Origin: Escherichia coli
Lineage (GTDB): Bacteria; Pseudomonadota; Gammaproteobacteria; Enterobacterales; Enterobacteriaceae
Strand: one strand, 5' to 3'
Assembly: GCF_003334815.1 (NCBI RefSeq)
Contig: NZ_QOWO01000029.1
Length of the DNA: 52,109 bases
Shown here: one piece after another, positions 807 through 15,562 of the stretch
Numbering within the stretch: the stretch's first letter is position 1
Layout of the letters: the number at the start of each line of letters is the position of its first letter
Program-made: the position numbers and the translations under genes
Notes under the pieces: generated by a model
What the model saw: only the letters and a program-made list of their open reading frames with translations
What the model was told of the DNA's origin: nothing
The model's database searches: none

Positions 807-842
807 ATCGACCATATTCGAGACTGATGACAAACGCAAAAC

Positions 843-871
843 TGCCTGATGCGCTACGCTTATCAGGCCTA
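843..871. repeat. REP (palindromic unit), first half of a BIME between fepA and entD
   Basis: Imperfect palindrome gcctgatgcgctacgcttatcaggcctac, typical of E. coli REP elements. Confidence 0.65.
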
Positions 872-907
872 CATGGTCCTGCAATATATTGAATTGGCAA
901 GATTTTT

Positions 908-941
908 GTAGGCCGGATAAGGCGTTCACGCCGCATCCGGC
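908..941. repeat. REP (palindromic unit), second half of the BIME, inverted relative to 843-871
   Basis: gtaggccggataaggcgttcacgccgcatccggc is the classic REP consensus. The same unit recurs at 22842-22874. Confidence 0.75.
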
Positions 942-980
942 ATGAACGACGCGCACTTTGTCAACAATCTGACGTTAGCA

Positions 981-3221
981 TCAGAAGTGGGTGTTTACGC
1001 TCATATACCACGTACGTCCCGGCTCGTTATAGGTATACGCCCCGGCACCGGCGATATAGTTGGCCCCTGCCAAATCGCCCGTGGTCTGGGCATTACCCGC
1101 ACGCCACAAACGTTTGTCGAACAGATTGTCCACGCCGCCGGTCAGACTGACATTCTTCGTCACATCCCAGGTCGCGCTCAGGCCAACAATGCTGTAAGGA
1201 CTAATTTCTTTGGTTTCCGGTCCAACCGCTGGCTGACCTTTATAGTTGTACTTCTTCGGCTGCTGCTTGCCGTACCAGGTGAAGGTCGTTTGCATCGACA
1301 AATCTTCCCGTGCCTGCCAGCTCAGCGTTGAGTTCAACGTATACTCCGGGATGATCGACAAACGGTCGCCCGTGGTTTTGTTTTCACTCTTCAGCATATA
1401 AGTGATGTTATTGGTCCACATCACCGTTTCGCTAACCGGTACGTTTAACGATCCTTCCAGACCTTCAACCACCGCTTTCGGCACGTTATCCCACTGATAG
1501 AGATCGGTGCCGACTGCGTTTTGCCCTACAGCCACATAGCCCGCTTCAATCTTATTGCGATAATCGTTACGGAACCAGGTGACGCCCGCCAGCCACCCGT
1601 CGCGTTTGAACTCCAGACCAATCTCTTTGTTGATGCTGGTTTCTACTTTCAGGTCATCGTTACCTTGCAGATAGCAGCCGCCCGCGCTGGCATAGCAACC
1701 CTGACCTTTACTGTAGAGAATGTAGTTCGGGTTAGTCTGGTACAGGCTCGGCGCTTTATAAGCACGGGCGATGCCCATTTTCAGCGTGAAGTCATCGCCT
1801 AAACCTTGCGATATGTTCAGCGCCGGGCTCCAGTTATTGCCGACAATACTGTGATGATCGAAACGCAGCCCCGGCGTTACGATGGTGCTGTCAGTCAGCT
1901 CCATGTTGTTTTCGGCAAACAGCGAGAAAATTTCTGCTTTTGAATACGGGCTACGGTCGGTGGTACTCACGCCATCAATAGCGCCACCGGTATTCGTTCC
2001 GGTCAGTGCCTGGGTGTTGGAACTTAAGTCCTTCATCCGTTGCTGATTCCACTCCGTACCCAGCGTCAGCGTCTGGTTAACGAGGAAATCAATCGGCAGG
2101 TTAACTTCGCTGTGCAGCATCACGTCATCAAGATCGATATCGACGAAATCCTGTGTCGCTTTTTCGTTAAATTTCCCTTCGGTACCGCCCGCCAGACCTT
2201 CCGGAATACGCGAGTTACGGGTGTGTTCGTACTGCACCCAGTTGCTGGTGGTCACGCCGTTATCCCAGCCACCGTTCCAGGTCAGCGCGTAGTTCTGGCG
2301 ATACAGACGGTTGGTTTCATCGCCATATTTCGAGCGGGTATAGGAATCGGAGTTGGTATTCTGGGTGTCGCCCGCATACAGGTTACCCTGGCGGCTGTAA
2401 CCTGCTTCCAGTTCCAGCGATTGCAATGGCGCGAAATCCCAGCGCACCACGCCATTAATATCTTTGTTGATTACCCCTTCGCGCCCGGCTGGTAACGTCG
2501 TGGCATACGTTCCGGCACGCGCGGACTGATGGCCCTGGTTGATATCCCACGCGTCAGCCTGGGTTTTGTCGAGGTTGCCATACAAACGGAAGCTGAATTC
2601 GTCGCCCAGCGGACCGGTCAGGCTAAAGTTAGTGCGTTTGGTGGCACCTTCCTCTTTATGTTCTGGCGCATTGAAATATGCGTCCCAGGAGCCGTGCCAC
2701 TCGCCGCTGCCTTTTTTGGTAATGATGTTAACCACGCCGCCCGCCGCGCCGTTGCCATAACGCGCAGCTGCCGGACCACGCAGAACTTCAATACGTTCAA
2801 TCATTTCAGGTGGCACCCAGGAAGTATCACCACGGGTATCGCGCTCGCCACGCCAGCCCTGACGCACCGAGTTACGGCTGCTTACCGGCTTGCCGTCAAT
2901 CAAAATCAGCGTGTTTTCCGGACCCATACCGCGAATATCAATCTGTCGGTTATTCCCACGCTGACCACTGGTGGAGTTACCGGTCAGGTTAACGCCTGGC
3001 ATGGTACGGATGATCTCCGACACATCGCGGGCAACCGGGTTTTTGCGGATTTCATCTGCGGTGATGGTCGAAACGCCAGGCGCCTGTAAGTTCTGCTCGG
3101 CGGCGGTAACGACAATAGTATCGTCATGTGAAACAGGAGTATCGGTCGGCTCTTGTGCCTGCGCTACCCCATAAATCCCCAGATTGACCAACAAGGCCAG
3201 GGAATGAATCTTCTTGTTCAT
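981..3221 (-). CDS. fepA: TonB-dependent ferric enterobactin outer-membrane receptor (746 aa)
   Basis: Signal peptide MNKKIHSLALLVNLGIYGVAQA, TonB box DTIVVTA and C-terminal ...YMSVNTHF with terminal Phe. Start placed at the internal ATG at 3221 rather than the track's extended start. Confidence 0.95.
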   Translation of the reverse strand: MNKKIHSLALLVNLGIYGVAQAQEPTDTPVSHDDTIVVTAAEQNLQAPGVSTITADEIRKNPVARDVSEIIRTMPGVNLTGNSTSGQRGNNRQIDIRGMGPENTLILIDGKPVSSRNSVRQGWRGERDTRGDTSWVPPEMIERIEVLRGPAAARYGNGAAGGVVNIITKKGSGEWHGSWDAYFNAPEHKEEGATKRTNFSLTGPLGDEFSFRLYGNLDKTQADAWDINQGHQSARAGTYATTLPAGREGVINKDINGVVRWDFAPLQSLELEAGYSRQGNLYAGDTQNTNSDSYTRSKYGDETNRLYRQNYALTWNGGWDNGVTTSNWVQYEHTRNSRIPEGLAGGTEGKFNEKATQDFVDIDLDDVMLHSEVNLPIDFLVNQTLTLGTEWNQQRMKDLSSNTQALTGTNTGGAIDGVSTTDRSPYSKAEIFSLFAENNMELTDSTIVTPGLRFDHHSIVGNNWSPALNISQGLGDDFTLKMGIARAYKAPSLYQTNPNYILYSKGQGCYASAGGCYLQGNDDLKVETSINKEIGLEFKRDGWLAGVTWFRNDYRNKIEAGYVAVGQNAVGTDLYQWDNVPKAVVEGLEGSLNVPVSETVMWTNNITYMLKSENKTTGDRLSIIPEYTLNSTLSWQAREDLSMQTTFTWYGKQQPKKYNYKGQPAVGPETKEISPYSIVGLSATWDVTKNVSLTGGVDNLFDKRLWRAGNAQTTGDLAGANYIAGAGAYTYNEPGRTWYMSVNTHF

Positions 3222-15237: not shown

Positions 15238-15302
15238 AAATCAGCTTCCTGTTATTAATAAGGTTAAGGGCGTAATGACAAATTCGACAAAGCGCACAAT
15301 CC

Positions 15303-15342
15303 GTCCCCTCGCCCCTTTGGGGAGAGGGTTAGGGTGAGGGGA
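15303..15342. repeat. GC-rich small intergenic repeat, copy A, in the fepB leader
   Basis: gtcccctcgcccctttggggagagggttagggtgagggga. A degenerate inverted copy lies at 15367-15406 and a close inverted copy at 22775-22816. Confidence 0.55.
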
Positions 15343-15366
15343 ACAGCCAGCACTGGTGCGAACATT

Positions 15367-15406
15367 AACCCTCACCCCAGCCCTCACCCTGGAAGGGAGA
15401 GGGGGC
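15367..15406. repeat. GC-rich small intergenic repeat, degenerate inverted copy B, in the fepB leader
   Basis: aaccctcaccccagccctcaccctggaagggagagggggc is partly complementary to copy A, so the pair could fold into a long stem in the fepB 5' UTR. Confidence 0.45.
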
Positions 15407-15562
15407 AGAACGGCGCAGGACATCACATTGCGCTTATGCGAATCCATCAATAATGCTTCTCATTTTCATTGTAACCACAACCAGATGCAACCCCGAGTTG
15501 CAGATTGCGTTACCTCAAGAGTTGACATAGTGCGCGTTTGCTTTTAGGTTAGCGACCGAAAA

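Follow-up and report, generated by a model that had tools for sequence, protein, structure and literature searches.

A conserved BIME-1 between fepA and entD of Escherichia coli probably acts as a weak intra-operon attenuator and appears to have taken the place of an ancestral hairpin

The window analysed here is a stretch of 52,109 nt of Escherichia coli DNA (contig NZ_QOWO01000029.1), which carries the neighbouring genes fepA (positions 981-3221) and entD (186-806), both on the minus strand according to the ORF list and the RefSeq annotation. The stop codon of fepA (TGA) is located at positions 981-983 and the start codon of entD at 804-806 (RefSeq NP_415115.2), again both on the minus strand, and the spacer from stop codon to start codon comprises exactly positions 807-980, i.e., 174 nt. 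Window position x corresponds to position x + 609273 of NC_000913.3, and a comparison of positions 700-1100 with K-12 records revealed 100% identity. A further ATG is present in frame at 813-815, three codons 5′ of the annotated entD start, and would yield a protein beginning with MVDMKTT. In the short-spacer allele of E. coli that is described below the matching position is ATA, and therefore the annotated start at 804-806 was supported. Positions 1-78 of the window are the end of the insertion sequence IS186B (NC_000913 608007-609351), the edge of which lies about 108 nt downstream of the entD stop codon. The two genes form a Fur-regulated operon, and the element that is characterized in the following is localized inside this operon. 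REP sequences at the fepA-entD spacer had reportedly already been remarked upon when entD was sequenced in 1989; REP features are absent from the RefSeq annotation of MG1655.

The initial annotation of this DNA had claimed a BIME of two oppositely oriented palindromic units between the 3′-end of fepA and entD, and this was borne out by the sequence, the REP head motif, and the linker. Reading of the sequence revealed a y-type REP or palindromic unit of 34 nt, GTAGGCCGGATAAGGCGTTCACGCCGCATCCGGC, at positions 908-941 on the plus strand with its GTAG at 908-911, exactly where it had been placed. The second unit, which had been placed one base off at 843-871, is a z1-type REP of 29 nt, GCCTGATGCGCTACGCTTATCAGGCCTAC, at positions 844-872 on the minus strand with its GTAG at 872-869. 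The CTAC end of z1 and the GTAG end of y both face a linker of 35 nt (873-907), i.e., the two units are inverted. The REP head motif GTAGGCCKGATAAG was found three times in the 52 kb window, compared to an expected number of 0.30, and two of the three occurrences are in the fepA-entD spacer. The third belongs to a solitary y REP (GTAG at 22842), which adjoins a boxC-like repeat (22780-22875). REP-containing matches to the region numbered at least 40 per record in 4672 records, i.e., in most E. coli genomes. The GTAG at the foot of the palindromes, the unit lengths, the extragenic position, and the high genomic copy number were all found as they are for REP sequences.

The original descriptions of BIME-1 (RIB / RIP) are said to be those of Gilson 1991, Boccard & Prentki 1993, and Oppenheim 1993. 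A BIME-1 consists of one y and one z1 unit with a long conserved L linker, often with an IHF site, and is present in single copy, and BIME-2 elements consist of y and z2 units in tandem arrays (PMC3333891; PMC1187871). The published unit lengths are 35 nt for y, 29 nt for z1, and 37 nt for z2 (PMC8266576), and because of its 29 nt the unit at 844-872 was assigned to z1. REP325, which has been described as y + z2, bears a longer z form, GCCTGATGCGACGCTTGCGCGTCTTATCAGGCCTAC. An assignment to z1 or z2 by comparison with REP325 alone was rejected as unsafe, since the copy between yaaX and yaaA is arranged z2-L-y, and the decision was left to the published lengths.

The linker at 873-907 was identified as the L linker of BIME-1 by two matches. 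It contains TGCAATATATTGAATTGGCA, which has one mismatch to the L core, while the expected number was 0. In addition, positions 865-906 on the minus strand matched the Rfam family RF02751 ES036 (CssrF) with 40.5 bits at a gathering score of 37.6. The ES036 model of 43 nt approximately covers the L motif and, next to it, the head of a z-type unit (z1/z2), and as the family is essentially the repeated L motif, the match is diagnostic of the repeat but does not prove an sRNA gene. The linker could also be aligned with the linkers of the copies between torZ and cmoB (z1-L-y) and between yaaX and yaaA (z2-L-y). The yaaX-yaaA spacer of MG1655 (L083:5530-5660), which combines an L linker with a long z2-type unit, is an "atypical" BIME by the published definitions. 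The chromosomal-type genes torZ and cmoB, with a BIME-1 between them, were also observed on pNJS001-2 of E. coli NJS001, a replicon of 438 kb that is annotated as a plasmid. No direct repeats were found in positions 780-1000. Because of the unit types (y + z1), their inverse orientation, the long conserved L linker, and the single copy without tandem amplification, the fepA-entD element is a canonical single-copy BIME-1, and its order in mRNA sense is y REP, L linker, z1 REP. Both the family and this member of it were known before, and among bacterial genomes this one is the best studied.

The linker contains a core, ATTCAATATATTG (882-894, minus strand), that has one mismatch to the IHF consensus WATCAANNNNTTR; 0.17 such matches would be expected per 174 nt. 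In 14 Escherichia sequences this IHF-like core was invariant, while neighbouring linker positions vary. The main role of the element might thus be at the DNA level, with the L linker binding IHF as in the RIB/RIP class and serving nucleoid architecture or supercoiling and not RNA 3′-end formation, and it fits that IHF sites are frequent in the L linkers of BIME-1 (PMC3333891). However, the ancestral spacers described below have a plain hairpin without an IHF motif, an IHF site leaves the conserved non-repeat flanks of the element unexplained, and REP325 was found to be without a role in chromosome compaction (2026 preprint). A main role of this kind is therefore regarded as quite unlikely.

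Folding of the region, which had been proposed as a check, revealed that the spacer RNA is predicted to be very stable (-75.4 kcal/mol, z = -6.4). Individually, the y hairpin reached -21.3 kcal/mol (z = -5.05) and the z1 hairpin -12.9 kcal/mol (z = -2.84). As the two units are inverted, each of them can form a hairpin of its own or pair with the other: the inter-REP helix 907-921:859-873 has a length of 15 nt and is 93% complementary, and a construct of this helix plus the L hairpin yielded -31.1 kcal/mol (z = -6.7). The whole BIME folded as one long hairpin had -46.5 kcal/mol, compared to -34.2 kcal/mol summed for two separate hairpins. A repeat search also uncovered an imperfect inverted repeat that brackets the BIME. 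Its two arms of 14 nt at 957-970 and 821-834 are complementary at 12 of 14 positions, which was reached in 5 of 5000 shuffles, and they are paired in the minimum-energy RNA fold. The sole covariation within Escherichia is a single compensatory pair in E. albertii, G868A + C844T, which keeps the self-hairpin of z1 and breaks the inter-REP pair 912:868. The comparative evidence on which of these predicted folds matters is thin and mixed.

For the operation of the element at the RNA level the initial annotation had proposed the mapping of transcript 3′-ends, and public transcript maps were found to contain two of them in the spacer, at positions 853 and 861. An interval without transcript ends, which had been named as a refuting observation, is therefore not what the maps show. 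The Term-seq study of Adams et al. 2021 (supplementary files 1 and 3) lists exactly one curated RNA 3′-end in the spacer, at position 853 (NC_000913 610126, minus strand) (PMC7815308). This end was detected only in M63 glucose medium, with an average read count of 31462 and the class "orphan"; it lies 47 nt upstream of the entD ATG, and the RNA finishes with ...GUAGGCCUGAUAAGCGUAGC (PMC7815308). The bicyclomycin data set of the same study was obtained with LB medium, for which no curated end is listed in the spacer (PMC7815308). The second end, at position 861 (NC_000913 610134, minus strand), was revealed by SMRT-Cappable-seq in M9 medium (Yan et al. 2018, Supplementary Data 1), where a transcript from 612639 to 610134 covers only b0584, i.e., fepA (PMC6131387). 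The start site 612639 has 546 reads; 57 reads stop at 610134, 69 stop at most 50 bp downstream, and 207 pass 610134 with a median read-through of 650 nt, which approximately corresponds to the entD stop codon (PMC6131387). The operon table of Yan et al. 2018 contains the units "b0584" and "b0584|b0583" from the start sites 612639 and 612668, and no entD-only transcription unit (PMC6131387).

From these counts the read-through past position 861 was calculated to be 62-78%. In one RNA-seq table (2026 preprint) the mean counts were 347.6 for fepA and 67.0 for entD, and the fepA:entD ratio of RNA per nucleotide was 1.44. Attenuation of read-through into entD, as proposed in the initial annotation, thus found support in that a minority of the transcripts end in z1, but it is weak, and because most transcripts read through, the element would be a weak attenuator with a small regulatory effect. 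The further proposal that the element keeps EntD at a low level was weakened by the high read-through; with 207 reads passing versus 57 + 69 ending and a ratio of about 1.4, a low EntD level is not mainly explained by the BIME.

The same data speak against a strong terminator that isolates entD, which would then be expressed from a promoter of its own. One paper does state that entD possesses its own promoters, and after a microaerobic shift entD was less responsive than fepA (log2 fold changes of -0.98 and -3.37, respectively). The majority of full-length reads, however, passes the element and extends approximately to the end of entD, a unit of entD alone is missing from the long-read operon table, and in positions 600-1200 neither a sigma-70-like promoter nor a terminator-like site was found. 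Strong termination is therefore considered very improbable. The unequal microaerobic response and the stated promoters suggest that there are inputs to entD beyond read-through.

The nature of the 3′-ends was considered further. Both ends are inside z1, past y, L, and the 5′ arm of z1, and they are 0-6 nt away from the 3′ edge of the 907-921:859-873 helix. With regard to the modelled folds, these positions would fit a block of 3′ exonucleases, or pausing or termination, at the inter-REP helix. A simple exonuclease block by a single REP hairpin fits badly, because the ends are inside z1 and not just downstream of a completed hairpin. The scan of 600-1200 for intrinsic terminators yielded no site and no U-run, and the RNA finishes with ...GAUAAGCGUAGC. 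A Rho review stated nothing about REPs. Liang, Rudd & Deutscher reportedly found in 2015 that a REP within about 15 nt of an upstream stop codon down-regulates translation. At this locus 39 nt lie between the stop codon of fepA and the y unit, the first REP, and therefore REP-mediated down-regulation of translation is not applicable.

The high read count and the "orphan" class of the Term-seq end, together with the Rfam ES036 match above the gathering score, could also be taken to indicate that the linker or the BIME harbours the gene of an independent, ES036/CssrF-type small RNA, or that a REP-containing decay fragment is stable and functional. Yet the ES036 match identifies the repeat, no start site in the spacer was reported by Yan et al. 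2018, and the long reads that end in z1 begin at the fepA promoter. An RNA of this kind with a function of its own is held to be highly unlikely.

The conservation of the element was characterized with a scan for the C-terminus of FepA in one genome per species, which covered 80 loci. All five Escherichia representatives (E. whittamii, E. coli, E. albertii, sp. E1V33, and sp. MOD1-EC7003) had a spacer of 173-174 nt with the same BIME-1, and within E. coli the full region was present in 5346 of 5426 complete genomes (98.5%). Compared to K-12, the Escherichia spacers had 0-10 differences in 174 positions. The y unit was without any difference to K-12 (0/34) in all comparisons, and it was invariant in the 14 Escherichia sequences. 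The 39 nt of the fepA-proximal flank (942-980, minus strand), a non-repeat sequence that is not common to two other BIME-1-like copies, had 0-1 differences and were near-invariant across the Escherichia species. Four-fold degenerate sites of fepA and entD, in comparison, were 10-34% different. The spacer divergence was 10/174 (5.7%) for E. albertii and 6/174 (3.4%) for E. whittamii, versus 27/100 and 25/100, respectively, at the third codon positions in the 150 nt that flank the spacer on each side (Fisher's exact test, p ~1.7e-6 for E. albertii and ~1.2e-7 for E. whittamii). The spacer including its non-repeat flanks was thus 4-6x less divergent than the adjacent third codon positions, and this local dip in divergence points to purifying selection that acts on the whole spacer. 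Two haplotypes of the last fepA codons (984-1000), GCGTAAACAC and GCATTAATAC, are common to different Escherichia species, which suggests inter-species recombination at the locus. As the haplotypes of the fepA 3′-end cross species borders, gene flow could contribute to the low divergence of the spacer and is a partial alternative explanation.

In other genera most of the spacers were much shorter and had a length of 36-69 nt (Salmonella, Citrobacter, Klebsiella, Kluyvera, Trabulsiella, Siccibacter, Pseudocitrobacter, and others). A single GC-rich hairpin with the core CCCTC...GAGGG and an energy between -14 and -33 kcal/mol was present in each of the 39 short spacers that were examined. In a stem analysis of 36 short spacers, stems of 7-14 bp were found in 34, and the other two had interrupted stems that were missed by the automatic extraction. 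Among these 36 spacers there were 28 distinct 5′ arms, and a T-run followed the hairpin in only a few. In several isolates of Enterobacter, Lelliottia, Leclercia, Raoultella and related genera the spacers were expanded to 85-493 nt. The spacers of 160-490 nt, which were observed in Enterobacter mori, E. asburiae, Pseudenterobacter, Huaxiibacter, and Lelliottia sp. WAP21, consist of tandem modules, each of which combines a terminator-like hairpin (AAAACGGCAACCC..GTTGCCGTTTTT) with a boxC-like unit (CCCTCTCCCTGTGGGAGAGGGCCGGGGTGAGGGCATCAGGCCGCAC). These expanded spacers look like an independent amplification of repeats at the same site.

The short form of the spacer is also present in E. coli. 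Strain 20 (NZ_CP064847.1) has a spacer of 49 nt, TGCTAACGCTTCCTCCCCCGATATTTGGGGGAGGAATAATATAGTTGAC, without the BIME, which is predicted to form a hairpin of 12 bp (10 Watson-Crick pairs plus two closing G·U pairs; energy of the complete spacer, -22.6 kcal/mol) of the kind found in Salmonella and Citrobacter. This short allele was present in 59 of 5426 complete E. coli genomes (about 1%), and the two forms together account for all but 21 of the genomes. An alignment of K-12 with strain 20 revealed that a block of 154 nt at positions 819-972 (+/-2 nt) replaces a hairpin segment of 29 nt, and the length of the block is close to the 140 bp that have been quoted for a complete BIME-1 (PMC1187871). 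Outside the y-L-z1 core the block contains about 14 nt that are common to the torZ-cmoB copy and the bracketing inverted repeat 821-834 / 957-970. The common nucleotides form the motif ACAAACGCAAAACT at 830-843, directly outside z1, and on the basis of the alignment with the torZ-cmoB BIME-1 they may be an external BIME-1 motif. Together with the distribution among the genera, the alignment makes it appear that an ancestral GC-rich hairpin gave way to the BIME.

The EntD proteins of strain 20 and of CLSC36, a strain that bears the BIME, are identical, and the DNA of the two strains differs by 1.65% in fepA and by 0.5% in entD. Introgression as a simple origin of the short allele was rejected, as the two strains showed no peak of divergence beside the spacer. 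The flanks are not claimed to be a repeated sequence themselves: searches with the flanks alone hit several places per genome at E <= 1, and a local search yielded short matches at chance level. One of the local matches, of 17 nt with one mismatch, connects the fepA-proximal flank (949-965) with positions 15521-15537 in a boxC region of the window, with a local E-value of 0.055, and may be due to chance. Two boxC-like repeats (CCCTCTCCCC..GGGGCGAGGGG / GGGTTAGGGTGAGGG) are located at 15300-15410, and the Term-seq 3′-ends 624567 and 624680 (minus strand) of Adams et al. 2021, which correspond to window positions 15294 and 15407, are found at these boxC-like repeats (PMC7815308). The palindromic core of boxC resembles the hairpin of the fepA-entD spacer in the other genera.

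The presence of two alleles also bears on the question whether the BIME, as a selfish or neutral repeat, settled in an intergenic site that tolerates it and has no selected role there, with RNA ends that are a by-product of its structure. BIME-1 elements are known for presence/absence polymorphism among isolates and are mostly found in strain-specific loops (PMC1187871), 59 E. coli genomes do without this copy and have the hairpin instead, one carrier and one non-carrier have the same EntD, and the effects of REPs have been reported to depend on the context. For this copy, however, the polymorphism is strongly skewed toward presence, which is unusual. The element is fixed in five Escherichia species, the low divergence extends to the non-repeat flanks, and all short spacers that were examined have a stem-loop at the same position. 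A selfish or neutral repeat is thus viewed as an unlikely explanation.

The fepA-entD copy resembles other BIME-1 (RIB/RIP) elements in its unit types and their lengths (29 and 34-35 nt), in the inverted arrangement of the units, and in the conserved L linker of 35 nt, the core of which is IHF-like. Like them, it is also present in single copy, follows the 3′-end of a gene, and shows presence/absence polymorphism. It differs from them in being located inside an operon and not at the end of a transcription unit, and in being near-fixed (98.5% of E. coli, five Escherichia species), while most copies of BIME-1 vary between strains. With the fepA-entD hairpin of Salmonella, Citrobacter, Klebsiella, Kluyvera, others, and 59 E. 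coli genomes it has in common the position and a stable stem-loop, mostly without a U-tract. The difference is that the latter is a single CCCTC...GAGGG hairpin of 7-14 bp in a spacer of 36-69 nt, with neither REP units nor an IHF motif, and that its core is related to the palindromic core of the boxC repeats. A third comparison is offered by REP325, a BIME-2-type array between yjdM and yjdN for which a double function, in partial termination and in the stabilisation of mRNA, has been described (Harris et al. 2026 preprint). Both elements lie between two co-directional genes of one operon, are transcribed, and are associated with truncated upstream transcripts and partial read-through into the downstream gene. 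REP325, however, has 12 units (y and z2) compared to y + z1 + L, and its removal led to an approximately 8-fold increase of the downstream yjdN transcript on plasmid constructs, whereas at the fepA-entD element about 20-40% of the transcripts end. By analogy, the best-supported view is that the BIME-1 would be functionally comparable to the hairpin that it replaced and to REP325.

Taken together, the BIME-1 probably functions as a weak intra-operon attenuator and as a 3′-end-forming site in place of the ancestral hairpin. According to this model, it would be transcribed from the fepA promoters within the Fur-regulated fepA-entD operon, and the transcript would fold very stably, either into the y and z1 hairpins or into the long y:z1 inter-REP helix that is capped by L. 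About 20-40% of the transcripts would gain a 3′-end inside z1, which would result in a monocistronic fepA mRNA with a structured 3′-end, and most transcripts would run on into entD. The fepA:entD ratio would thereby be tilted modestly, and entD would not be insulated. We infer that the structure causes the 3′-ends, be it by termination or by a block of exonucleases, and that the conservation reflects a role of the element. Stabilisation of the fepA mRNA by the BIME, which had also been proposed in the initial annotation, is plausible by analogy.

It is tempting to go one step further and to speculate that the whole 154-nt block, i.e., the BIME-1 and its mutually pairing flanks, is a domesticated module that displaced the attenuator hairpin early in Escherichia, was kept by purifying selection, and adds a function that a plain hairpin lacks. 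This is possible, albeit doubtful. If it were true, the added function could, e.g., be a tuning of FepA:EntD that depends on IHF or on the growth phase, or alternatively a control of entD translation via the bracketing helix, which ends 15 nt from the start codon, and the two segregating E. coli alleles would differ in enterobactin physiology.

The locus can also serve as a calibration case, in which a reader of the sequence alone named the repeat rightly and public transcript maps already answer the check that had been proposed. With regard to the family, this BIME-1 is unusually fixed and conserved among elements of which most copies vary between strains. The two alleles, which both exist in E. 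coli on near-identical backgrounds, are a natural pair for testing what a BIME-1 does beyond a simple hairpin.
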